Positions 216 through 11,453 of a stretch of 13,627 nucleotides of DNA are shown piece by piece; position 1 is the stretch's first letter, and each line of letters begins with the position of its first letter. Origin of the DNA: a virus (lineage: Duplodnaviria > Heunggongvirae > Uroviricota > Caudoviricetes); the IMG/VR virus record IMGVR_UViG_2579778952_000003; one strand, written 5' to 3'. Made by a program: the position numbers and the translations under genes. Below the pieces are notes generated by a model, which did no database searches, was not told where the DNA came from, and saw nothing but the letters and a program-made list of their open reading frames with translations.

Positions 216-229
216 ATGGGGATCCCCAT
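216..229. repeat. Perfect 14-bp palindrome ATGGGGATCCCCAT, preceded by the GTCGAC palindrome at 210-215
   Basis: Read directly; the sequence equals its own reverse complement. Function unknown; may be host or junction sequence. Confidence 0.9.
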
Positions 230-351
230 ATCGGCATCATGCCCACCAGCTTGAAGTATTTTTCGCGGGTGTAAAAATTTGACGGGGTGGGCAGTCCCAT
301 AAGCAATGGGTTGTAGGGATTTCGATCCCACCTCCTGAATGCAATTTTTCG

Positions 352-365
352 TATATATATATATA
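352..365. repeat. (TA)7 dinucleotide repeat
   Basis: tatatatatatata read directly, immediately left of the GCGGGTTA repeat block. Confidence 0.9.
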
Positions 366-374
366 CAAAACAGT

Positions 375-528
375 GCGGGTTATGCGGGTTAGCGGGTTAT
401 CTTCGCTTGCTAAGTGTTTTTTATTCTTTAATATCAATGAGTTAAAAAATGATGCGTTTGAATATTAGCCAAAGCGTAACCCGCGAGACATTCAAAATAA
501 CCCGCAAATCCCCCCCCAAATAACCCGC
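375..528. repeat. Symmetric repeat architecture: three tandem GCGGGTTA (375-399), an AT-rich spacer of about 75 bp, then three inverted TAACCCGC copies (477-484, 498-505, 521-528) with a C8 tract at 510-517
   Basis: Exact 8-mers read directly in both orientations. The layout resembles recombinase arm-type or accessory-protein binding sites flanking an AT-rich core. Confidence 0.8.
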
Positions 529-689
529 AACCCCATCAGGAAAATGGGGCCAGTGATGCCACCGAACGGCTGAAAATTGATAATCAGGTTGCTGGTGTGA
601 ATACTGTCGCTTTAACCTACGGTAATTGTTCTGCTTCGGTGCGTATCTTCTCCGTGGTCATTTTGACCATGCACCACACGAAAAAAAAC

Positions 690-707
690 GGGGGGTATTA
701 AACACCC
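690..707 (-). terminator. Candidate intrinsic terminator closing the head/packaging operon
   Basis: Minus-strand RNA GGGUG-uuuaa-UACCC (5-bp stem including one G-U pair) then CCCG and a U8 run (plus-strand A8 at 681-688). Stem is weak, U tract is strong. Confidence 0.3.
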
Positions 708-730
708 ACTCTATTTAAATACCGTCTTTT

Positions 731-780
731 TGTCACTGTGTGTCACTGGTTGTCACTCTCCGTCACGGTATGTCACCACA
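731..780. repeat. Five tandem 10-bp repeats with a conserved (T/C)GTCAC core at exact 10-bp phasing
   Basis: GTCAC at 732, 742, 752, 762 and 772; units tgtcactgtg, tgtcactggt, tgtcactctc, cgtcacggta, tgtcaccaca. Lies directly 3' of the last packaging-operon gene (stop at 783). Helical phasing suggests a protein-binding array. Confidence 0.85.
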
Positions 781-782
781 AG

Positions 783-1076
783 TTAACGTCGTAACCGCTC
801 CGGCTTCTTCCAGTGGTAAGTAATTTTTTCTTTCTCCTGGTACATCTCCACGCGGCGACGATATGACAACAACTCCAGAACTCTGGTGCGTATATTGCGT
901 ATATCCACGCCGTTAAGCTCGATACCGTCACGGCGCATCACCTCAGCCACCACACGCGCGTAATTTTCGGCTATCACGCTGTCCGGCTGCGTGGCCTCCT
1001 GTTTGCCTGCTTCCTGGCTGATTCCGGTAACGCGACGGATTATTTTTAGTAGTTCGGTTTCGCTCATTCTCGTCAT
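783..1076 (-). CDS. Hypothetical protein (97 aa), last gene of the packaging operon; possibly a head completion or adaptor protein
   Basis: ORF overlaps the TerL stop by 4 nt, suggesting translational coupling. No recognisable motif; the functional guess is from position only. Confidence 0.5.
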   Translation of the reverse strand: MTRMSETELLKIIRRVTGISQEAGKQEATQPDSVIAENYARVVAEVMRRDGIELNGVDIRNIRTRVLELLSYRRRVEMYQEKEKITYHWKKPERLRR

Positions 1077-2734
1077 CCCCCATCAACCGCCGAAAGCCGC
1101 TCTTTGTGGCTGTCGCTTATATCAAATGCAAATTCCTCATGTTCTGCCTGGAATGTGCCAAACGCCATCAGAGCCGCAACGCTCGGGTCTATCTTGTTGG
1201 ATGATTTTTTCTTGTTCGGCTTGATATTGGCGTTCGCGTCACTCTGCATCACAACATTACTCATTGACCAGGCCAGCACCGGATCGCCACGATGCACAAT
1301 CACCTTCCGGTTAACAAAAACTTCGAACGATTTCGCCGCCGGACTGAAACGAAGGTATGTTTGCGGGAACGGCTCCACCTCAAATCCTGCCCCCTGTAGC
1401 TGCGTCCTCAGGTGCGTGGCGTTCCATGTATCGAAGCCCACCAGCCTGATATTGAAATTCTCTGCATCCGCCATGATGTCATCACGGATACGGTCATAAT
1501 CAATGCAGTCACCCGGTGTTGTGCGTATCCAGCCCGCCTTTACCCACTGGCGATAGATGGCGCGGTTTTTATTGGCGGGGTTCTGTAGCTGAAATTCCGG
1601 CAGATAGTGACGGGAAACCAGCATAATCTTTTTACCGACCGGAAAGGCATAGCACACGCTGGAAATATCGCTGGTTGATGATAAGTCCAGCCCCGCGTAG
1701 CACTCCTGACCGTATAAATCTGCCTCCGCGAACGTTCCGGCGCACTCCGTCCATGCACCGTTACCCATCCACGGCGTAGCCCCCTGACACCAGATATTGA
1801 ATCGCTTGGTGAGCATTTCCACCCACTGCGACGGAATACCCCGCGCTTTCTGGATGGTTGAGGCCAGTTTTTCACGATCGACGGAAACATCGATATTGGG
1901 ATTCGCCTTTATCCACATCGCCGGATCGTCAACCTCGCTTTCATCATCCAGCTCGTAAATCAGCACGAACATGGATTCGTTCACCTCTTCACCATCCAGT
2001 ATCTGGCAGCAATAGTCATAGTGTTGTTTACAGGCTGAAACAACGTTGCTCCCCGATGTGGTGATGGCAAATAACAGCCCCTCCGGACGCGCCCCCATTC
2101 CCAGTTCAAGCGCGGAATAAACCCCGTTGTCAGGGTGCAGGTGATATTCATCCACAATGGCAAGACTCGGGTTTGTACCTTCAATGGTTGCCGCTTTTGC
2201 TGCCAGTGGCTTTAACAGGCTGTTGGTTTTCGGGTGTATCACCTTGTGTGCCTGAATATTTACCCGCTTTCGTAACGGTCGGGATAAAAGGCACATCTGA
2301 CGCGCATCATCAAACACGATCCGCGCCTGATCACGACTCACGGCGGCGGTGTAAATATCCTGCTGCCCGTTTTCCATAACCAGAAACCAGTTAGCCAGGA
2401 TAGCGGCGACCGTGGATTTGGCATTTTTTCGCGGCACTTCAATGAATGCGCTGGTGTATTTGCGCCGTCCGGTGGCCTTAACCTTAAAGCCCAGGATGCA
2501 CGCAAAGGCGAACTGCTGCCACGGCTCCAGCTCAATGGGGCTACCGCGCATTGCGCCTTTTACGTGCGGACACACCCTGGAAAAGGCAATAAACCGCTCC
2601 ACGACCTCCGGATCGAACGTGTAAAGGGGGTTTTCAAGGTCAGAAAAATACCGTTTAACGGCCTGTTTCAGTCGTTTACAGGCCGTAATTTTGCCGTTTT
2701 TTACGCCTTCTGCGTACTCATGCCAGGCGGTCAA
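1073..2734 (-). CDS. terL: Terminase large subunit (553 aa)
   Basis: N-terminal ATPase region with a PRKNAKST P-loop-like motif and overall large-terminase sequence character. Start appears to be TTG at 2734 with a GAGGA Shine-Dalgarno 5 nt upstream; the start overlaps the TerS 3' end by 17 nt. Confidence 0.9.
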   Translation of the reverse strand: MTAWHEYAEGVKNGKITACKRLKQAVKRYFSDLENPLYTFDPEVVERFIAFSRVCPHVKGAMRGSPIELEPWQQFAFACILGFKVKATGRRKYTSAFIEVPRKNAKSTVAAILANWFLVMENGQQDIYTAAVSRDQARIVFDDARQMCLLSRPLRKRVNIQAHKVIHPKTNSLLKPLAAKAATIEGTNPSLAIVDEYHLHPDNGVYSALELGMGARPEGLLFAITTSGSNVVSACKQHYDYCCQILDGEEVNESMFVLIYELDDESEVDDPAMWIKANPNIDVSVDREKLASTIQKARGIPSQWVEMLTKRFNIWCQGATPWMGNGAWTECAGTFAEADLYGQECYAGLDLSSTSDISSVCYAFPVGKKIMLVSRHYLPEFQLQNPANKNRAIYRQWVKAGWIRTTPGDCIDYDRIRDDIMADAENFNIRLVGFDTWNATHLRTQLQGAGFEVEPFPQTYLRFSPAAKSFEVFVNRKVIVHRGDPVLAWSMSNVVMQSDANANIKPNKKKSSNKIDPSVAALMAFGTFQAEHEEFAFDISDSHKERLSAVDGG

Positions 2735-3074
2735 GCTCGTCCTCTTCCTCTGTTTCCGGTGGATTTCTGCGGCGACTTACCGGGTCAAAACCCAGCAAAG
2801 AAGCCATTTTGATCATTATTCTTTCAGCGTCAGCCTTTGCGCTCAGGGCGGGGTTTCTGCTCTCGCTGCCCTGACTGTTAACAATGCTGAACCCGCGCGT
2901 GGCAAGGTCTTCGACGGCTTTGCGGTATATGGAGTAGTTAACACAATACAGCTCCAGATTGCTCCAGTCGGCGGGGGTAAGGTCTTCCCGTCCGGAAAGC
3001 TGGCGCGATTTTTCCTTCCACTGCCTGACCGCGATTTCATCCAGGTAAGCGGGGGCTTTTGGTGGTCTTGCCAT
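2718..3074 (-). CDS. terS: Terminase small subunit, P27-family-like (118 aa from ATG at 3074)
   Basis: Begins MARPPKAPAYL, typical of P27-family small terminases, with an acidic C-terminal tail. The track ORF extends to 3215, but the conserved N-terminus starts at the internal Met. Confidence 0.8.
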   Translation of the reverse strand: MARPPKAPAYLDEIAVRQWKEKSRQLSGREDLTPADWSNLELYCVNYSIYRKAVEDLATRGFSIVNSQGSESRNPALSAKADAERIMIKMASLLGFDPVSRRRNPPETEEEDELDRLA

Positions 3075-3193
3075 GTTCTTTTTTCGCCCAATTATTTTCA
3101 AAAAAATTCCCGTGCACAAAAATTTGAGGAGGCGGTCGGTGTCCGGCAGGGACGGTTTCGTCCTGAAAACCACCCCCACCCCCTCTGACGGCC

Positions 3194-3370
3194 TCACCAG
3201 CGATTGCGAAAACATTCCATGACCTCGCGGTCACGGTCGGTTAATTGCTTCGCTGTGGTGCGTTCTGTGCGCCCTGTCCTGTTGGCTTTGTGCCCTGTCT
3301 CCTGTGTCTTCCATAAGTCACGCTGCCTTATCAGTCCACGTATCAGCCTGGTTTGCTCCTGTTCAGTCAT
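3194..3370 (-). CDS. Small, highly basic hypothetical protein (about 59 aa) between HNH and TerS
   Basis: Reading frame starts at ATGs (3379, 3373 or 3370) overlapping the HNH stop (3363-3365). Arg/Lys-rich with no recognisable motif; could be spurious. Confidence 0.3.
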   Translation of the reverse strand: MTEQEQTRLIRGLIRQRDLWKTQETGHKANRTGRTERTTAKQLTDRDREVMECFRNRW

Positions 3371-3803
3371 CATCGCCATACATCCAGTCGTTACGGTGTG
3401 CAGCCCGTTCTTCCTGCTCGCGATACATGCCCGCCTTACGGTTCGCTTTCGTGGCTGGATCTTCCCGTGTCGTCTTACGGTTGTGGCACGTCTGGCACAA
3501 TGCCTGGTGGTTCCACTCAGGCCAGAAGAGAACATCACCGCCGCCATTGATGGGGATGATGTGATCCACCACAAGAGCTGGCGTATAAATCCCCTTAGCC
3601 AGACAACGCACGCATAACGGGTTTTTGCTCAGGTACAGGGCGCGGTATTTGTCCCACTGTCGGGAATACCCGCGCGCGCGGCGGTGTCCCCGTCTGGCAT
3701 CCTCTGCACGCCATACAGCCCGTCTGTGCTCTTCACACTTGCCGGACTTCACGCGCTTATTACAGCCCGGCTCAGTGCATCGCCTTAATGGTTGCCACGG
3801 CAT
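3363..3803 (-). CDS. HNH endonuclease (146 aa), terminase-associated type
   Basis: Cys-rich N-terminus (CTEPGCNKRV...GKCEEH) and HNH core (VVDHIIP...NHQALCQTCHNRKT). Start ATG overlaps the connector stop (TGATG). Confidence 0.85.
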   Translation of the reverse strand: MPWQPLRRCTEPGCNKRVKSGKCEEHRRAVWRAEDARRGHRRARGYSRQWDKYRALYLSKNPLCVRCLAKGIYTPALVVDHIIPINGGGDVLFWPEWNHQALCQTCHNRKTTREDPATKANRKAGMYREQEERAAHRNDWMYGDDD

Positions 3804-4105
3804 CAGTACACCCCCACATCACGATAAACCGACCAGAGCGCAGAAATAGCCATAGGCAGTTCAGACTGCTCCACTGGTGAAACTGCTTCCCTGTTCTCGT
3901 ACAGGAAAGCGATGTACATCAGGCAACCAACACGCATTGCCGGGGTAAATTCCAGCCCGTCTTCAAAACGTTTCCCGATATGCTTCTGGCAGGCTTCCAG
4001 CGCCGCATCGGTATACATTTTCAGAAGTTCGCCTTCACCGGATAAATCATCATCAAGTCGAAGATGTGCCCTGACTTCATCAGGTGTAATTCTGGCTTCA
4101 CTCAT
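3803..4105 (-). CDS. gp6-like head-tail connector / DNA-packaging protein (100 aa from ATG at 4105)
   Basis: MSEARITPDEVRAHLRLDDD N-terminus and C-terminal FLYENRE motif match the gp6-like connector family. GGGAG Shine-Dalgarno upstream; the track ORF start at 4168 would overlap portal. Confidence 0.8.
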   Translation of the reverse strand: MSEARITPDEVRAHLRLDDDLSGEGELLKMYTDAALEACQKHIGKRFEDGLEFTPAMRVGCLMYIAFLYENREAVSPVEQSELPMAISALWSVYRDVGVY

Positions 4106-5312
4106 CTTTTCTCCCTTTAATTTCCACAGTCTGTTTCCATGCCTGGCTGAACTCATCACCACCTTCACGCGGCGGCATACCCTCGCGTTCGCGAGCTTCG
4201 TTCGGATTCATGATCCCGCTCTTAATCCCTTTCTCATACGTGGCATAACGTTCGGTGGGTGTGGCGCGCAGTAAATCGGCTGAATCAAACTCAACCAGAT
4301 AACGGGTACCAGGTACGGGAGAAGTCACCAGCAAAGCGGCCTTGATTTGCTGTTCGAAGTTCGCCAGCCACGGGCGCATTGTCATGGTCAGAAATGCGCG
4401 GCTCGCCTCACTGAAATTGCTGTAGGTGCTGTTGCTGTATTCCTGAAGAAAAATCGGCGACACGTTGAACATCCTGGCGATGTCTTCAATGGAGAAGCGA
4501 CGGGAGGCCAGCCATTCCGCATCCTGGTTACTCATCCCCAGCTGCCTGTAATCCATGCCCCCTTCAAGGATTGGCGTTTTTCCGGCATTTTTCGCCCCCT
4601 TGTAGCGTTCCAGTGCGTCTAATGCCTGTTTACCTTTCACGCCGTCCAGCCATTCACCTGACGTGATAATCCCTGCCGCCATCATGCCATCTTTCATAAT
4701 GCTGGCTCCGTGACGCTGTTGAGCAAGGCCAAGCCCCAGCGCCTCACGGCAAATCGTGACGGGGGAACGCCCCAGAAAGCCATCATCCGAGGCATAGCGG
4801 AGATGCAGAACTTCTTCCTGTAAATACGTGCGCACCGTTCCTGTACAGGGTTCGGTGATGGTATAGCGGTATTTGTGTGTGCCTGTGCGTTCCGGTACAA
4901 CACACCCCGGCGCATAAGGATGAAGTGATTTTGGCTGCCCGTCCCGCCCCCACTCAATAACCGCATAGGCGTTACCGTTCAGCAGGCAGTGACGCATCAT
5001 TGTGCGTTTAAACTGGTAAGGTGTCAGGCACGAATTAGGCTGCTCATTCAGCAGAATATCTACCGGGTGACTGTCCAGCCATTCCCGCGCCTCTCTGCCC
5101 TTATCATTGCGTACCAGATACAGGTAACACGGCATCGTGGCCACCGCCTCAGCGATGACAGAAACCGCGTTCATCACAGCAGGCAATGATTCAGCCGTCC
5201 CGGCAGAAACATATTCTCCGGATCCGGTATTTGGTACACCAGACAACGCCAGAAAATCATCAATGGACAGGTTACGCAGATCGCTTTTTTTACGACTAAA
5301 AGGCCACCACAT
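4098..5312 (-). CDS. Portal protein, HK97 family (about 404 aa from ATG at 5312)
   Basis: Conserved portal blocks LNGNAYA, EVLHLRY, REALGLGLA, DAEWLASRRFSIEDIARMFNVSP and a C-terminal PPREGGDE. Start MWWPFSRKK sits 1 nt after the protease stop. Confidence 0.9.
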   Translation of the reverse strand: MWWPFSRKKSDLRNLSIDDFLALSGVPNTGSGEYVSAGTAESLPAVMNAVSVIAEAVATMPCYLYLVRNDKGREAREWLDSHPVDILLNEQPNSCLTPYQFKRTMMRHCLLNGNAYAVIEWGRDGQPKSLHPYAPGCVVPERTGTHKYRYTITEPCTGTVRTYLQEEVLHLRYASDDGFLGRSPVTICREALGLGLAQQRHGASIMKDGMMAAGIITSGEWLDGVKGKQALDALERYKGAKNAGKTPILEGGMDYRQLGMSNQDAEWLASRRFSIEDIARMFNVSPIFLQEYSNSTYSNFSEASRAFLTMTMRPWLANFEQQIKAALLVTSPVPGTRYLVEFDSADLLRATPTERYATYEKGIKSGIMNPNEAREREGMPPREGGDEFSQAWKQTVEIKGRKDE

Positions 5313-5313
5313 A

Positions 5314-5874
5314 TCACAACCCCGCCAGCTCAGCCCAGCGATGACGATTATTTCCTGCCGGGCGTAATTCAGGGTACTGTGCAAACAACGAACGGTGGGC
5401 AATCTCCACGCCGGATTCGGGATAAGCAGGCATCGATGTTATCGTGATTTCACGGAGTTCTGCGGCGGTTACAGTACGCAGATACGGTTTTTGCGCGATA
5501 TTCCACTCCTCGCATAATGCGCGAAAGCCAAAGCTCATCCCTGTAATGTCGCCACGTTCCACCAGCGTAAGCACATCTTTTCCAAGCTGGGTATTTGGCG
5601 GTGTCAGTTCAAAACGTAGCCCGGTGTTATCCTCAGTCAGTACCAGTGAGCCGGATTTGGTACGCCCCAGCAGTCGGGTATAGTCATGCTCATACAGACA
5701 GCGCACATCATTACCCGCCGCCAGATAGTCAGCAAAAGCCCCCGGCGTGAACTGTTCGCGAAACTCGTCCCAGATAATTTCTGAAAGGCTGTTCCAGCGA
5801 ACGGCATAACCCACCAGTTTTTTATCGCTGGCGGTCAGTTCAGATGTACGGATTTCAAAATCGGTGTTTTTCAT
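5314..5874 (-). CDS. Prohead maturation protease, HK97 / S78 family (186 aa from ATG at 5874)
   Basis: Motifs LVGYAVRWN, GAFADYL, CLYEHD, LTEDNTGLRFE, GDITGMSFGF and TSMPAYPESGVEI. GGAG Shine-Dalgarno 7 nt upstream of the ATG; the upstream part of the track ORF overlaps the capsid gene and is rejected. Confidence 0.85.
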   Translation of the reverse strand: MKNTDFEIRTSELTASDKKLVGYAVRWNSLSEIIWDEFREQFTPGAFADYLAAGNDVRCLYEHDYTRLLGRTKSGSLVLTEDNTGLRFELTPPNTQLGKDVLTLVERGDITGMSFGFRALCEEWNIAQKPYLRTVTAAELREITITSMPAYPESGVEIAHRSLFAQYPELRPAGNNRHRWAELAGL

Positions 5875-5894
5875 CGGTGTACTCCATAAAGCTG

Positions 5895-5915
5895 AAAAAG
5901 GAGGCCGAAGCCCCC
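5895..5915 (-). terminator. Candidate intra-operon attenuator between capsid and protease genes
   Basis: Minus-strand RNA GGGGGC-UUCG-GCCUCC (6-bp stem including one G-U pair, UUCG tetraloop) followed by UUUUU. The stem is stable only on the minus-strand transcript (A-C mismatch on plus). Confidence 0.4.
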
Positions 5916-5923
5916 TTTGCTCA

Positions 5924-7069
5924 TTACTTGCCAGCCTGAATTTCCAGAATCTTGATGGCGTTCGAATCCACCACACCACCGCCCAGATATTTCTGGGTAT
6001 AGATGTTAATGAATCCAGGCTCGCTGAAATCCGGACGGGTACGCGTACCGGTTTTATGGTCAACGATGAAATAACCGCGCTTAAAGTCACCGACTGCAAT
6101 CACACCGTCCGGCATAAATTCCAGATATTCAACCGGAAGCCCCAGCAGAGAATCAGGATCACCAGCCTGTAAACGATCGCGCCAGATGTAATCACCAGTG
6201 GCATTTTTCAGTTTTTGTGCGGAGGCGGCTGTATTTGAGTTCATCACCCATACAGCTTTTTTGCGGTACTTATTGCGCAGCGTAAATTTCAGGTCAATCA
6301 GCATATCGGCGCTGAGACTGCCAGTCACTTTTTTCGTCTGGAGCGTACCGAAAGGACGGGTTTTGTCATTATCCGTAGTGCGCGGGAAAGTCAGGAAACC
6401 TTTGGCTTTTTTCTCGCCATCACCGGAAACCAGATCCGTTTCTTCGGTATCAACGAAAGTGTCGCCAATTTCAGAAGATAACCAGCCCATAATATCGACT
6501 TCGGAAAAATCGATAATTTCCTGAGTGGTTTTCGGGTAAGCGTAGATCGGATACAGGCGGATACTGACTTCATTCAGTTTTGGGGTTGCCGTCTGGTTAC
6601 GTGCCGCACCTTCTTCGCCGTGTCCCACGACCGCACCCCCGGCAGAAACCAGTTGCTTAAATTCATTACTGTGAATGGTTTTAACAGTACAGATTTTACG
6701 CATCACCGACTCATCAGAAAGCTGACGCATAATTTCTCTGTTCAGTTCCGGGATAACCGTATAACCACCATCAGCCGGAACACTGCCGGACAGGTTGCGG
6801 GTTTCCCCGGTCAGAATGTAAGAGCGTAGCTCATTTTTGGTGATTTTATCTTCGACGGGAACACCAGGCTGGTTACGTTCTTCATCAGCCACAGACTCGA
6901 GGCGGGAAATTTCTGTGTCGAGGGAATCGGCTTTTGCACGCAGTTCATCAAACTGTTTGCCTTCGTCATCGGTTAGACTGCGGTTTTCACTGTCGGCTTT
7001 TTCCAGCAGGGATCGCATCTGGTTTTTCAGGGCGGTTTTTTGCTGGCGGAGTTCGATTAATTTCTTCAT
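5924..7069 (-). CDS. Major capsid protein, HK97 fold, with N-terminal coiled-coil (delta/scaffold-like) domain (381 aa)
   Basis: N-terminal 100 aa is charged and heptad-like (LRQQKTALKNQMRSLLEKA...); C-terminal region (GYFIVDHKTGTRTRPDF, ILEIQ) is typical of HK97-type capsid proteins. Confidence 0.9.
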   Translation of the reverse strand: MKKLIELRQQKTALKNQMRSLLEKADSENRSLTDDEGKQFDELRAKADSLDTEISRLESVADEERNQPGVPVEDKITKNELRSYILTGETRNLSGSVPADGGYTVIPELNREIMRQLSDESVMRKICTVKTIHSNEFKQLVSAGGAVVGHGEEGAARNQTATPKLNEVSIRLYPIYAYPKTTQEIIDFSEVDIMGWLSSEIGDTFVDTEETDLVSGDGEKKAKGFLTFPRTTDNDKTRPFGTLQTKKVTGSLSADMLIDLKFTLRNKYRKKAVWVMNSNTAASAQKLKNATGDYIWRDRLQAGDPDSLLGLPVEYLEFMPDGVIAVGDFKRGYFIVDHKTGTRTRPDFSEPGFINIYTQKYLGGGVVDSNAIKILEIQAGK

Positions 7070-7137
7070 GAAGGTTTTCTCGCATTGGTTAAGATTCAGG
7101 ACGTGAAACCAACACGGGGGGAGCGCCGCCCGACACT

Positions 7138-7172
7138 CTCGGCATCTCGCAGATCAACCCGGCATCGCGCAG
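7138..7172. repeat. Imperfect 14-15 bp direct repeat (ctcGGCATCtCGCAG / cccGGCATCgCGCAG) in the GC-rich capsid leader
   Basis: Read directly; 20 bp apart, inside the predicted 5' UTR of the capsid operon. Confidence 0.6.
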
Positions 7173-7224
7173 GGGGTCAGGCGGCATTGTGGCGGCTCAC
7201 GTCTGAGTGCCACACGCCAACATA

Positions 7225-7252
7225 TACATAAAAATCAGTATGTAAACATCAA
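7225..7252 (-). promoter_or_regulatory. Candidate sigma70-like promoter for the head/packaging operon
   Basis: Minus strand TTGATG (7252-7247), 16-nt spacer, TATGTA (7230-7225), just downstream of the 7313-7333 terminator and about 150 nt upstream of the capsid ATG. GAACAACC repeats at 7263-7282 lie just upstream. Confidence 0.3.
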
Positions 7253-7312
7253 CCAGAATCACCGAACAACCTGGAACAACCACGAACAAATAATTTACAA
7301 AACCTGAAAAAA

Positions 7313-7333
7313 GGCCCGGAAAAAATCCGGGCC
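7313..7333 (-). terminator. Intrinsic terminator separating the early/replication operon from the head operon
   Basis: Perfect 8-bp stem GGCCCGGA / TCCGGGCC with a 5-nt loop, flanked by A6 on the left and a T-rich run on the right, so a U6 run follows on the minus strand. Dyad is bidirectional. Confidence 0.75.
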
Positions 7334-7342
7334 TTTATCGCT

Positions 7343-7591
7343 TTATTGTTTCACTGGCTCCCGCATTCTGCGTCTTATTTTCCACAAATATTCGATCATC
7401 GCTTCCACCTGCTCACGGTTGGTTGCGAAAATTTCCCCGGTCAGTGAGCTACGCAGAAAATCATGATGATCCACAAAAAATAACGCATCGGAAGAAAGCA
7501 ACCGACGATATTTTTTTGCTGTCGTGGTTTCCAGATCATCAAAACCATGAAGCTTTTTATGTTGCTGAACTTCTTCAAATGTCACTGGCAT
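7343..7591 (-). CDS. Hypothetical protein (82 aa), last gene of the early operon
   Basis: AGGGGGA Shine-Dalgarno just upstream of the ATG at 7591; overlaps the ProQ/FinO-like gene end by 10 nt; followed by the terminator. Confidence 0.55.
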   Translation of the reverse strand: MPVTFEEVQQHKKLHGFDDLETTTAKKYRRLLSSDALFFVDHHDFLRSSLTGEIFATNREQVEAMIEYLWKIRRRMREPVKQ

Positions 7592-8112
7592 GTATCCCCC
7601 TTTGCTGCCCGGCGCTGGCGCTTGTGCTTCTCATTCAGCACCATCAGCCGTGTTTCTGCCTCCTGCTGTTCCTGTGGTGTCACTTCCCCACATGGCTGGC
7701 CTTTCAGGTCGTAACGTGCGCCACCAGCTATCAGGGCGCGGTAATAGCGCGGAGACTGCGCATAGGATGCCAGCGTCGCACGTAATACCCCCGGCCCGAA
7801 TGCCAGCCCCCTGACGGCGATATCCTGCATCAGGTCGTCGAATATCCCCACCTTAAGCGGCTTCGGTGCTTTATGGCTGAATAAGTCAGGCCACATCTCA
7901 GTGAGGCGGTTAACGCGTCGGCGGTTTTTGCGCTGCCTTTTGGTCATATGCTGCCACGGTGTCGCCCCTGTGGGCTTCTGCTGTGCGTTCTGATTGCCGG
8001 GTATCACTTTATGCGCCGATGTGGTTTTATCCTGCTCTTGCGCCGCCTGCGTCGTTTTCTGCGGCGTGCCGTAAATGCCTTTCGGCTTCCGGTTAATGGT
8101 CAGCGTTGTCAT
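7582..8112 (-). CDS. ProQ/FinO-domain RNA-binding protein (176 aa)
   Basis: PLKVGIFDDLMQDI and ASYAQSPRYYRALIAGGARYDLKGQPCGEVTPQEQQEAETRL parallel the E. coli ProQ N-terminal FinO-like domain (PLKIGIFQDL ... [35 protein letters not shown]) as recalled from memory. Basic, Gln-rich N-terminal extension; AGGGGAAGG Shine-Dalgarno. Confidence 0.8.
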   Translation of the reverse strand: MTTLTINRKPKGIYGTPQKTTQAAQEQDKTTSAHKVIPGNQNAQQKPTGATPWQHMTKRQRKNRRRVNRLTEMWPDLFSHKAPKPLKVGIFDDLMQDIAVRGLAFGPGVLRATLASYAQSPRYYRALIAGGARYDLKGQPCGEVTPQEQQEAETRLMVLNEKHKRQRRAAKGDTCQ

Positions 8113-8148
8113 GCCTTCCCCTGTAATTACTCTGTTCGCTGTTGTGAA

Positions 8149-8574
8149 TTAAAACGGTATGTTATCCCCGTACGGGTCATCGTGCTGGCTTGTCTGTTGT
8201 TTTGCCCTGTTCAGTGCGTCAGTGGCCTGGCCCTGTTGACCTTTTTTGCCGCCCGGTCGCGCCGTTCGCGCACTGATTACGCTGTCTGCAATAACCTGCC
8301 AGCCCTGCCGCGTTTCCCCGTTCTGGCCTGTCCACTGGCTCACCTGCATGTTACCCGCCACGCTCACCAGTTCGCCTTTGTGGTGTTTTGCCAGTGCGTC
8401 GGCCTGTCTGCCAAACGCCAGGACAGATAACCACATCGTCGCCGTTCCGTCATCTGCCTGGCTGCACGGCAGGGGAACCGCCATACTCGCCATCGCCATT
8501 TGTGTCCCTTTGCTGGTGGTCTTTAACTGCGGGTCAGCCACCAGCCGCCCGTAAGCCGCTATCTGTGCTGTCAT
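8149..8574 (-). CDS. ssb: Single-stranded DNA-binding protein homologue (141 aa)
   Basis: OB-fold-like core (IAAYGRLVADPQLK ... WLSVLAFGRQADALAKHHKGELVSVAGNMQVSQWTGQNGETRQGW), Gly/Gln-rich linker and an acidic C-terminal tip ending DNIPF (E. coli SSB ends DDDIPF). Confidence 0.8.
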   Translation of the reverse strand: MTAQIAAYGRLVADPQLKTTSKGTQMAMASMAVPLPCSQADDGTATMWLSVLAFGRQADALAKHHKGELVSVAGNMQVSQWTGQNGETRQGWQVIADSVISARTARPGGKKGQQGQATDALNRAKQQTSQHDDPYGDNIPF

Positions 8575-8816
8575 GCTGTCTGCTCTCCGGTTTTAACGTT
8601 GATGGTTGTCACCTGTTCCGCTTCGGCAATCTCCCGTTCTGTCAGCGTGGCAAAGTTTGCCGCTGCCGTGGTCATGAATGCGCTTACCAGTTCGGGATGT
8701 GCTTTTGCGTACCCTTCTCCCGCGTTGCGGTCGATGATTTTTATCGCCACCCTCAGCCAGTGTTCTGTCAAATCAAGGGCGTGAGATTGTGGTTTTTTTG
8801 CGTGCTTCGTTGTCAC
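8571..8816 (-). CDS. Hypothetical protein (81 aa), GTG start
   Basis: GAGGT Shine-Dalgarno 7 nt upstream of GTG at 8816; stop overlaps the ssb start (ATGA). First gene after the iteron block. Confidence 0.5.
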   Translation of the reverse strand: MTTKHAKKPQSHALDLTEHWLRVAIKIIDRNAGEGYAKAHPELVSAFMTTAAANFATLTEREIAEAEQVTTINVKTGEQTA

Positions 8817-8860
8817 AGGCTTTACCTCACAGCAATAAAATAAAATTTTTGCATTTTAAC

Positions 8861-9090
8861 CCTTCACCTGTTCACCTTTTGAGATTTTCCCTTTTTATTC
8901 ATAATGTTAAGGGGTGAACAGTTTCACAAAAACTATTCACCAACTGTTCACCACTGTTCACCCTTAAAGCTCAATAAATAATCAAAAAGGTGAACAGTGA
9001 ATAGTTTGGTGAACAGTTCACAAATAACTGTTCACCCTATAATGTACTGATATAAAAGATATTTATAACAGGGTGAACAGTGGTGAACAG
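8861..9090. repeat. Iteron array of TGTTCACC / GGTGAACA octamers in both orientations: candidate origin of replication
   Basis: At least nine copies read directly (8868-8876, 8914-8921, 8944-8952, 8954-8962, 8989-8998, 9008-9017, 9029-9037, 9072-9080, 9082-9090) in an AT-rich context directly 3' of the primase gene. TGTTCACC is the octamer bound by P4 alpha protein at ori and crr. Confidence 0.8.
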
Positions 9091-9103
9091 TTATTCCATA
9101 AGT

Positions 9104-10918
9104 TTAATTTTTGCTGTCGTCATTTGTGACCGATGCACATGATGGCATCCAGTCTTCTGAATCCTCTGTCAGTGTCACATTTGAACGCAAACCGTGCTTC
9201 GTTTTCCGTTTTATATACTCCCTGCCATATTCCGCCATTGCCCCCGGCATATCTTTACCGAAGCGCGTCAGTGTTACAGGTTTACCGAATCCGTGTGCCC
9301 TCATATATGCCAGATAGGCGTGATAAAGATACCTGCGCGGACTGAACGGAATAATTTCGGCATTACCCACTAACAGACCATCACACATTACCGACGACAT
9401 GAGATAGCCACAGAAGTCCACCAGCGAATCGCCCTCGCGTTTTATCACCAGAGCTTCTTCTGATTTCTGCTGCTCATACAGCAGGCGTTTAGCTTCGTCC
9501 TGGTCAGAAAAACGAGTAAGCAGATGGCGAATCACAACCGCCAGCTCTCCTTCTATTTTTTCTGCCAGCATGGGGTCGCGCTCGTTCTCCGGTACAACCT
9601 CCGAAAAATTGAATATCACCCGACGACGTGAGATCCCCCCGCTGCGGTCACTGAATGACATGGCGTTATTGTTCACCGCCAGCACGACCGCCTGAATGCG
9701 TGTTGAGTAGGGGGCTTTATGCTTCGGGTCGATTGCCACCTTGTCACCGCCTGTAATAGCCTTAATTCCTGCGCCATCACCAGCGTAGCGGGTCATATCC
9801 GGCATGATAATCAGCGAAAAGCCAACCACTAACGCGCGTTCCCTTGCATCTTCCAGCGCCTTCATGCTTGCCGATACTGTGTTGGCCTTACCCGCCAGCA
9901 TGGTGCAAATCTCCGCCATCACGCTTTTACCACTTCCCCCTGGACCTGTTACCTCAATGAATAACTGCCAGTCGTACCGGTTCGCCAGCACCATGAATAA
10001 TGCAGCCAGCACGCGATCCGTCTTGCGGTCATTCTCTGCCACCGAGCAGCGTAACCACTTCCAGAAATTCGGCGCATGTGTTGCCAGCGTTTCCCCCTCT
10101 GCTGGTGGGCTGAAAGGTAATTCACTGGCAATTAACAACCAGTCGTTTTTGTTATGCTCCCGAAAATTACCTGTTCTGGTATCAAATACCCCGTTACTGA
10201 ATCCAATCAGGTTACGGGCTGTATTCCCCATTACAGGCAAACTTAACTTCATGGTATCGACCGCCGATTTAATGGCGTTCTGCGAATAGCTGATCTCCGC
10301 ATCAATGAAAATCTGCGCCATAGCACGCTGTAACTCTTTATCCTGAATCGGCTCCCATACAACGCCGTTGTAATGGTGAACAGTGTCAGAGTCGGCATGA
10401 ATCGCCAGTTCACCGCCATAATGTGCCAGGAGAACTTCGCCGCGCTGGCTTGCTCCCATCTGGTTAAGCGCCAGTGGTGCGGCGCTGTCTTCTGTTTTTT
10501 TCTTAACAGGAAGCTGAATCACCAGACCATCAGAAAGATTCTGGCGCTCACGGGCCAGATATTCGCGCCAGTTCTGCACCTCCTGGCCGTGCATACCCTC
10601 AGGATAAAAATTTGCATCCTGTACGCCTGCCGCCGCCAGCTTCTGACCAATCGCCTTTATCATTACTGGCGCAAGATATCCGGCCCTGAATATGCGCACG
10701 GATTTTCTGCCTTCCGGCACAATTTGCAGCTTATCCAGTTCGGATAACTGCTGCTCCCCAAGCCACACAGGAGGCTCATTATCTCCGGCCATACGCGCGT
10801 CATGTTCCTGCCATTGTTTTGCGTGTGACCAGGCATCACTACCCGCAAAAATAATGACTTCTGTTTCTTTGTGTTTTATGCCGCGTGACTGCTGTTTTAC
10901 GTTCGGTGCCAGTTTCAT
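9104..10918 (-). CDS. P4 alpha-type primase-helicase (604 aa)
   Basis: Primase-like N-terminal half, Walker A GPGGSGKS in the middle, long C-terminal domain; adjacent to the iterons it would bind. AGGGG Shine-Dalgarno; ATG overlaps the upstream gene's stop (ATGA). Confidence 0.9.
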   Translation of the reverse strand: MKLAPNVKQQSRGIKHKETEVIIFAGSDAWSHAKQWQEHDARMAGDNEPPVWLGEQQLSELDKLQIVPEGRKSVRIFRAGYLAPVMIKAIGQKLAAAGVQDANFYPEGMHGQEVQNWREYLARERQNLSDGLVIQLPVKKKTEDSAAPLALNQMGASQRGEVLLAHYGGELAIHADSDTVHHYNGVVWEPIQDKELQRAMAQIFIDAEISYSQNAIKSAVDTMKLSLPVMGNTARNLIGFSNGVFDTRTGNFREHNKNDWLLIASELPFSPPAEGETLATHAPNFWKWLRCSVAENDRKTDRVLAALFMVLANRYDWQLFIEVTGPGGSGKSVMAEICTMLAGKANTVSASMKALEDARERALVVGFSLIIMPDMTRYAGDGAGIKAITGGDKVAIDPKHKAPYSTRIQAVVLAVNNNAMSFSDRSGGISRRRVIFNFSEVVPENERDPMLAEKIEGELAVVIRHLLTRFSDQDEAKRLLYEQQKSEEALVIKREGDSLVDFCGYLMSSVMCDGLLVGNAEIIPFSPRRYLYHAYLAYMRAHGFGKPVTLTRFGKDMPGAMAEYGREYIKRKTKHGLRSNVTLTEDSEDWMPSCASVTNDDSKN

Positions 10919-11214
10919 TTTTTACCCCTGAATCCGTTAATCATGGTTTTCAGCTTCTGGATGTTTGCCCGTGCCCTGGCGTTGCTGGTGGACACGTTAT
11001 GCGGCGCGGTCTGTACCAGAGAAAAATCACGCCGGAACTGATAAACAGGCATCACGCAATCATATTCGTAACCTTCACGGCGGTAGGTTACGCGCCGTTC
11101 TTCCACGCCCTTAATCATTACCGTGCCGCCGTACTGGTCGCGGTAAATATCGCCGCGCGTAAATTTAGGGTGAGTGTTGCCACTGGCAGTTAAGCCAGAA
11201 TATTTAAGTTTCAT
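10915..11214 (-). CDS. Hypothetical protein (99 aa)
   Basis: ORF translationally coupled to the primase; no recognisable motif. Confidence 0.55.
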   Translation of the reverse strand: MKLKYSGLTASGNTHPKFTRGDIYRDQYGGTVMIKGVEERRVTYRREGYEYDCVMPVYQFRRDFSLVQTAPHNVSTSNARARANIQKLKTMINGFRGKK

Positions 11215-11219
11215 TATTT

Positions 11220-11453
11220 TTATTCTCCGGTGTGCTGTTCTTTATATCTGTCGTGCAATAGATCTATTTCTTGCAGTTCCATTATTACAGGCTCAAGAAG
11301 CGTTATTAATGCCGTGGCAATTCTTGATTTTTGTTTGTCGCGTTCATTGTCGCCAAGTGTTTCAAGCCATATGCGCAATATTTCCAGCATGTTTTCACTG
11401 TGAGAAAGTGCAAGAAATGCGCGGTCTATTGTTTCGTGGTAAATATCACGCAT
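11220..11453 (-). CDS. Hypothetical protein (77 aa)
   Basis: ORF with GAGGA Shine-Dalgarno; overlaps the upstream gene's stop by 8 nt. Confidence 0.5.
   Translation of the reverse strand: MRDIYHETIDRAFLALSHSENMLEILRIWLETLGDNERDKQKSRIATALITLLEPVIMELQEIDLLHDRYKEQHTGE

Follow-up and report, generated by a model that had tools for sequence, protein, structure and literature searches.

A repeat array near the end of a capsid-forming phage-inducible chromosomal island of E. coli is most likely an orphan replication origin

The repeat array at positions 352-528 of the window (the whole stretch of 13,627 nucleotides analysed here) is probably a replication origin of the type known from phage-inducible chromosomal islands (PICIs). 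Its sequence would place it in the group in which a DUF927-family Rep is paired with the iteron GCGGGTTA. Within the present island this origin module is most likely a heterologous orphan, because the resident initiator is P4 alpha-like and has an origin of its own made of TGTTCACC iterons. The reading as a Rep-binding, PICI-type origin is based on the position of the same module beside rep in related islands, and on a switch of iteron sequence in an island of E. albertii (L010). The element is of a known kind, and is a variant of it in being displaced from rep, fused to a cos site and uncoupled from the initiator.

Judged by sequence comparison, the window is an E. coli capsid-forming PICI (cf-PICI) inserted in yifB. 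The first 1.1 kb match E. coli chromosomes, and the entire window is matched in strain E500002 by an island of ~15 kb in yifB/comM. The integrase gene lies just past the right end of the window. The genes of the island match the cf-PICI gene set (10.1101/2022.09.08.507074) and include:

Minus strand: AlpA-family regulator, Icd-like protein and DUF4222 protein
Minus strand: 604-aa primase/helicase, SSB and ProQ/FinO-like protein
Minus strand: HK97-type capsid, protease, portal and head-tail connector
Minus strand: HNH, P27-family TerS and TerL

By its sequence matches, the island is visibly a mosaic. Positions 216-8607 are 92-95% identical to the DUF927 cf-PICI of UMNF18 (L004), and positions 8149-10959 are 90-91.5% identical to islands of the P4-alpha type (L015 and L016). 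Two further segments, 70-234 and 10496-11229, resemble the island of O157. Matches in the protein homologue search were mostly truncated E. coli entries. A scan of genome contigs gave only 5 loci, of which the Shigella locus stops just short of the expected cassette. As a separate observation, five TGTCAC-type units with a 10-bp period occur at 730-780, just 3' of a 97-aa ORF (783-1076, minus strand) and 5' of a terminator-like hairpin (707-693). A Shigella island (L008) has a homologous GTGAC array at 20243-20290.

The array consists of the following parts:

352-365, no strand: (TA)7 tract, left boundary of the origin module
375-399, plus strand: left iteron set, three head-to-tail copies of GCGGGTTA at 375, 384 and 392, located with a repeat finder
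400-476, no strand: AT-rich spacer of 77 bp, candidate melting region
477-528, minus strand: right iteron set, three copies of GCGGGTTA at 477, 498 and 521

This arrangement is highly non-random. The 13.6-kb window has six exact copies of GCGGGTTA, all of them inside 375-528, where chance would give 0.51, and six copies were reached in 0 of 200 dinucleotide-preserving shuffles. The left copies have a spacing of 9 and 8, and the right copies are phased 21 and 23 bp apart. The GC content of the spacer is 29.9%, compared with 50.5% for the whole window. The spacer also holds the only match in the window to the IHF consensus (WATCAANNNNTTR), namely TATCAATGAGTTA at 432-444, and the TATCAA..TTR motif of this match is retained in homologues. 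Both direct reading of the sequence and the repeat finder bear out the preliminary description of three tandem and three inverted 8-mers around an AT-rich core. The spacer, put there at 75 bp, is AT-rich as described, with a length of 77 bp. Of the two tracts said to flank the array, the (TA)7 tract does so, but the C8 run (510-517) is inside the right set, between the fifth and sixth copies. The expectation that these slippage-prone tracts make the site variable agrees with the (TA)5-7 and C4-C8 lengths seen among homologues.

In an alignment of 15 distinct homologues, the most conserved columns are those of the iterons (93-99%), except for the sixth copy. Column conservation is 93-97% for the left iterons and 99% for iterons 4 and 5. 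The sixth iteron, at 88%, is close to the 87% of the spacer. A search of the literature for the 8-mer GCGGGTTA gave only unrelated primer matches.

Replication origins of PICIs and SaPIs were reportedly described by Ubeda et al. in 2007. Such origins have opposed iterons on each side of an AT-rich centre (PMC6092414, PMC9371898), and those of PICIs are located immediately 3' of the rep gene (PMC6092414). The iterons of SaPIs are read by a winged-helix domain within the C-terminal domain of the self-loading Rep, with one hexamer proposed per iteron side (PMC9371898). The cf-PICI papers (including 10.1101/2022.09.08.507074) do not give the positions of ori and cos, and the text of the ISME paper does not spell out the iterons. 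The window has the opposed layout, with 3 + 3 copies of GCGGGTTA around the 77-bp spacer. The position immediately 3' of the initiator gene is seen in the O157 island (L002) and in the classic PICI L007, but not in the window, where the iterons are also not cognate to the DNA-binding domain of the island's own Rep.

The O157:H7 EcCIEDL933-type island (L002) carries a homologous module immediately 3' of rep, which encodes a DUF927 protein of 710 aa. This module has the TA tract, the tandem copies of GCGGGTTA, the AT-rich spacer and the inverted copies, and is directly followed by a second GCGGGTTA array consisting of five direct copies, an AT-rich stretch and two inverted copies. L007 has the same layout, with the module directly 3' of its DUF927 rep. 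In the DUF927 islands of PU-1, UMNF18 and APEC37 and in four IMG/VR contigs, the second array is by rep and the module is at the far end of the island. Both the rep-adjacent array and the module were present in every GCGGGTTA-type DUF927 island examined (9/9). The preliminary description had offered a second origin as an alternative, and this was right in kind: the architecture and the iteron match the rep-adjacent origin of these relatives, and another origin is really present in the window, at 8869-9089.

That other origin is part of the resident replicon:

9104-10918, minus strand: Rep gene, with a Toprim/DnaG-like part (aa 1-140) and a P4 alpha-like helicase/DNA-binding part (aa 137-599)
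8869-9089: rep-adjacent origin, nine exact copies of TGTTCACC directly 3' of rep

The resident Rep is 49% identical over aa 137-599 to residues 313-776 of P4 alpha, and the annotation of phage P4 lists TGTTCACC as "ori type 1 repeat" in both ori and crr. We therefore regard 8869-9089 as the presumptive origin of the island itself. The P4-alpha-type islands L015-L017 and the packaged relative vB_KppS-Ant have only the TGTTCACC origin and no second array, so a TGTTCACC array is evidently sufficient for a P4-alpha-like Rep. No TGTTCACC-like site was found within 352-528, and tblastn found no homologue of the C-terminal domain of GCGGGTTA-type Reps in the window or in the island as a whole (L001). 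A 553-aa ORF adjoining the array had been the first candidate for a Rep, and was rejected since it is TerL.

The Reps of module-carrying islands have a common N-terminal region of ~140 aa (41-100% identity), and the rest of these proteins belongs to unrelated helicases. Each type of helicase body occurs with its own rep-adjacent iteron:

DUF927 body: GCGGGTTA
P4 alpha-like body (D5_N/DUF5906/Pox_D5), as in the window: TGTTCACC
Second D5-like body (L055): GGTAGAx
RepA-family body: CCTCACTTTT or CTCCCCACTTTT

In the window, the common domain of ~140 aa corresponds to 10499-10918 (minus strand; Rep aa 1-140); it is Toprim/DnaG-like and has no Pfam match.

The E. albertii island (L010) suggests which part of Rep reads the iteron. 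The cos block and the (TA)n tract are preserved in it, as is the layout of three tandem copies, AT-rich centre and three inverted copies. Its iterons, in the array next to cos as well as in that next to rep, read GGGACAAG, and the replaced module begins right after the (TA)n tract and the ACAAAAC that follows it. The DUF927 Rep of L010 is 96-100% identical in its N-terminal domain to that of UMNF18 (L004), and its helicase body is about 80-100% identical to those of other DUF927 Reps. Its last ~120 aa are only 24-48% identical to those of GCGGGTTA-type Reps, which are 82-92% identical to each other over the same region. The C-terminal region of DUF927 Reps gives a weak match to the Cch HTH (PF18662). 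Because only this part of Rep switches in L010, and no other protein of the island does, the sequences give good but not conclusive grounds to think that the iteron tracks the Rep C-terminal domain, as in SaPIs. The co-variation comes from one switch event in one lineage, and in L010 just 2.3 kb separate the Rep C-terminus from the cassette, which leaves room for inheritance of both as a single block. Two other candidate readers of GCGGGTTA were rejected. The shared N-terminal domain of Rep has a Toprim/DnaG-like fold, and L010 has it in unchanged form despite its switched iterons. Neither the DUF4222 protein nor any of the other shared small proteins separates L010 from the GCGGGTTA islands.

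At the island end, the array is part of a larger conserved unit:

216-575: conserved cos-ori cassette of ~360 bp, common to islands at five sites
261-322, minus strand: phiP27-type cos site ("cos2"), 87% identical to the annotated cos-site region of phiP27
284-293: equivalent of the annotated 10-nt cos-site of phiP27, GGGGTGGGCA on the plus strand

The cassette is 85-93% identical among islands at yifB, dinD, thiM, clpS/cspD and tRNA-Pro. These islands have five different integrases and att sites, and the cassette does not co-vary with the integrase. In the Stx phage phiP27, the cos region is between HNH and terS. The island has a second homologous, P27-family cos-like site at ~3085-3200, in the canonical HNH-terS interval, and the linear record of vB_KppS-Ant (LR881103) begins and ends in the same interval. 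ARAGORN found no tRNA, and Rfam gave no match in positions 1-1100 of the window; a tRNA-like stretch near 300-340 was rejected as such and is part of the cos block instead.

Several other features were observed in and around the cassette. A near-palindrome of 30 bp (ATGTCGACATGGGGA/TCCCCATATCGGCAT) is located at its left edge (208-237), and is also present in the O157 island (L002, 7114-7148), which is without the rest of the cassette. The distal end of this EcCIEDL933-type island (L002, 7330-7780) has 4-5 repeats (..GTTACCGCGCC..CCTCAAATTGAGG..) in place of the cos-ori cassette. In APEC37 (L005), a direct repeat of 118 bp (14780-14897 and 15214-15331) brackets the cassette, and a second cos-like copy occurs at 14578-14666. 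These repeats suggest that the cassette was inserted or duplicated by recombination. The 118-bp repeat, together with ATTGATAATCA at 576-586 of the window, had prompted the idea that the cassette is a tandem remnant between att-like cores, which we rejected, as there are no general flanking att repeats. Coding sequences for "hypothetical proteins" have been annotated across the cassette (L003, 15458-16213, and several RefSeq genomes); these calls are probably spurious and lie over non-coding DNA.

We propose the following scenario for the orphan origin. In the relatives, the GCGGGTTA iterons would be the binding sites of the self-loading DUF927-family Rep helicase, and their reader would be the C-terminal helix-turn-helix/winged-helix domain of this protein. 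By analogy with SaPI Rep, one Rep assembly would form on each iteron set, and the spacer between the sets would melt. In the window, the module is located ~8.5 kb from rep, fused to a phiP27-type cos and a few hundred bp inside the att junction. It most likely descends, together with the cos/packaging half of the island, from a cf-PICI of the DUF927 type whose replication module was exchanged while the old origin was left behind next to cos. The breakpoints of this exchange would be after the N-terminal domain of Rep and near 8600-8760. We infer that the GCGGGTTA module is silent with the resident Rep, and that it would fire if a GCGGGTTA-specific DUF927 Rep were available in trans. All 15 complete genomes that carry the window's copy have a single such module, and therefore no co-resident cognate island.

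The state of the module in other islands with non-cognate helicases varies. In L023, which has a RepA-type helicase, the module is decayed, with 2 of 6 iterons intact. Intact GCGGGTTA modules are found with non-cognate helicases in the window, in GF66.1/L076, in L055 and in ETEC1747 (L006), where GF66.1 is an independent P4-alpha-type cf-PICI at thiM. These intact modules could be kept for a function that is independent of the resident Rep, but they could equally reflect frequent, recent exchange of cos-bearing ends. Because a close cognate relative exists for every non-cognate copy, recent acquisition is not separable from selection.

If such a function exists, the cassette at 216-575 might be no relic but a portable "hitch-hiking" unit under selection, which we consider doubtful. 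For a carrier, the DUF927 Rep of a different island could then provide replication in trans, with packaging by way of the cos of a phiP27-type helper. The cf-PICI would thereby retain an additional, borrowed means of being amplified and transferred, as a satellite exploiting satellites, and the presence of intact GCGGGTTA modules with four types of non-cognate helicase would be a footprint of selection.

It is unlikely that the array is instead a functional second cis element of the resident replicon, used together with the TGTTCACC array in the manner of the split ori/crr of P4. The resident Rep would then act on it, for example through the shared N-terminal domain. P4 does need two separated iteron regions, ori and crr, which are annotated 4.5 kb apart, and DUF927 islands such as L003-L005 have split arrays. 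The Reps of all module-carrying islands share the N-terminal domain of ~140 aa, and the iterons are intact in both the window's island and GF66.1.

The neighbourhood of the array brings up packaging: given its adjacency to cos and its central IHF consensus, a packaging-accessory site would also fit. The array would then be a cosB-like region that binds terminase or an accessory protein and serves the adjacent phiP27-type cos. No more than ~80 bp separate its start from the predicted site of cos cleavage, array and cos move together as a single cassette, and its repeats, inverted repeats and IHF site (the only one in the window, and central to the array) resemble the R3-I1-R2-R1 arrangement of lambda cosB (PMC9026076). 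However, array and cos also occur apart from each other. The cos core motif is found without repeats behind it in 42 of 56 viral contigs, including phage-length ones, and the 14 contigs in which it is followed by (TA)n and a GCGGGTTA array are all short and island-sized. PhiP27 itself has no GCGGGTTA-type array after cos. L007 and L015 have a cos-like block without the array, and in O157 (L002) and L007 the array is beside rep with no such cos nearby. Moreover, relative to cos, the array is located toward HNH and not toward terS, islands without any terminase genes also carry the cassette, and the iterons have the same sequence as those next to rep and change together with the C-terminus of Rep. 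In light of these observations, we consider it quite unlikely that the array acts like cosB.

In plasmids, additional iteron arrays away from the origin often serve copy control, and the array is without a cognate initiator in cis. It could on these grounds be a centromere-like site, or an incompatibility or copy-control site that titrates Rep or a partition protein (handcuffing), but we think this very unlikely. The module has the full layout of an origin with its AT-rich centre and is not a mere binding array, and none of the 15 host genomes has a co-resident cognate island. No ParA/ParB-type gene was found among the RefSeq-annotated genes of the island or in Pfam scans of part of the ORFs, which leaves the partition-like site put forward in the preliminary description unsupported.

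The att site of the island was located by alignment of both junctions with an uninterrupted yifB, in which attB reads ...TTCAT-ATCCGCTATTGATAAT-GGCGCT...:

1-16: att core inside yifB (attL copy), 16-bp ATCCGCTATT(G/T)ATAAT, from the empty-site alignment
80-138: candidate integrase arm-type repeats AAAATGACTACACCAGTAACTACACC and ACAACGTGGAACAA, also in the integrase-proximal arm

The 16-bp core is duplicated, with one copy at 1-16 of the window and the other beside the integrase. The motifs ACTACACC and AACAACGTGGAACAA are arm-type repeats common to both att arms (the integrase-proximal copy is at L001 30874-30932), and all of the arm-shared repeats are at most ~140 bp from the core. The APEC37 island likewise has the ACTACACC motif in both its arms. 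The array had been interpreted at first as arm-type recombinase or excisionase sites around a crossover core, with the suggestion that the same 8-mer be looked for near the integrase and with two observations named that would speak against this: a junction elsewhere, and repeats that are ordinary host DNA. The junction is indeed elsewhere, the repeats are island DNA and not host DNA, and GCGGGTTA is absent from the integrase-proximal arm. Although the array is located at the island end away from the integrase, and repeats with an IHF-like site are typical of attP arms, it is extremely unlikely to be made of integrase or excisionase sites, because the arm repeats near the core are motifs other than GCGGGTTA, the core is 360 bp away and islands at five unrelated integration sites carry this cassette.

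These results have consequences beyond this island. For annotation, they are a caution that conspicuous repeats at the end of an island need not be att arms. PICI origins have been described as 3' of rep and matched to it, and here such an origin is detached, fused to cos and shuffled among integrase types, in an island that has two cos sites. This is a natural case for asking how module exchange rebuilds satellite replicons. One may further ask whether islands that share a cell could cross-replicate, or become incompatible, through orphan origins. The Reps, in turn, provide a map of specificity, in which the Toprim-like head is common to all, the helicase bodies are exchangeable and a reader at the C-terminus would be paired with the iteron.

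Four known systems can be compared with the array. Like the arm-type sites in the attP of P4-family tyrosine integrases, it is made up of short repeats located where an integrated island ends. However, it is outside the att arms, lacks an integrase-proximal duplicate and is independent of the type of integrase, and the real arm repeats of this island, ACTACACC and AACAACGTGG, are unlike GCGGGTTA. With a lambda-type cosB (R3-I1-R2-R1) next to cosN, it shares repeats in both orientations around an IHF consensus, no more than ~100 bp from the cos cleavage site. It differs from cosB in that cos separates it from terS, that phages with a homologous cos lack it, that it elsewhere stands beside rep without cos, and that its sequence appears to track Rep and not the terminase.

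The ori/crr and alpha protein of P4 resemble the island's own replicon, in that type-1 TGTTCACC repeats are directly 3' of an alpha-like Rep, and P4 is also a satellite with two separated iteron regions. The array at 352-528 differs from these regions in its iteron, GCGGGTTA, which belongs to the specificity group of the DUF927 Reps, and the resident Rep differs from alpha in that a small Toprim-like domain replaces the primase domain. The origins of PICIs and SaPIs are similar to the array in their opposed short iterons that flank an AT-rich region, and the reading of these iterons by a DNA-binding domain at the C-terminus of the self-loading Rep helicase would apply to the DUF927 group as well. 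EcCIEDL933-type islands have an array of the identical 8-mer 3' of rep. By contrast, the module of the window is ~8.5 kb from rep, is joined to cos at the far end of the island, and mismatches both the iterons and the DNA-binding domain of the resident Rep.
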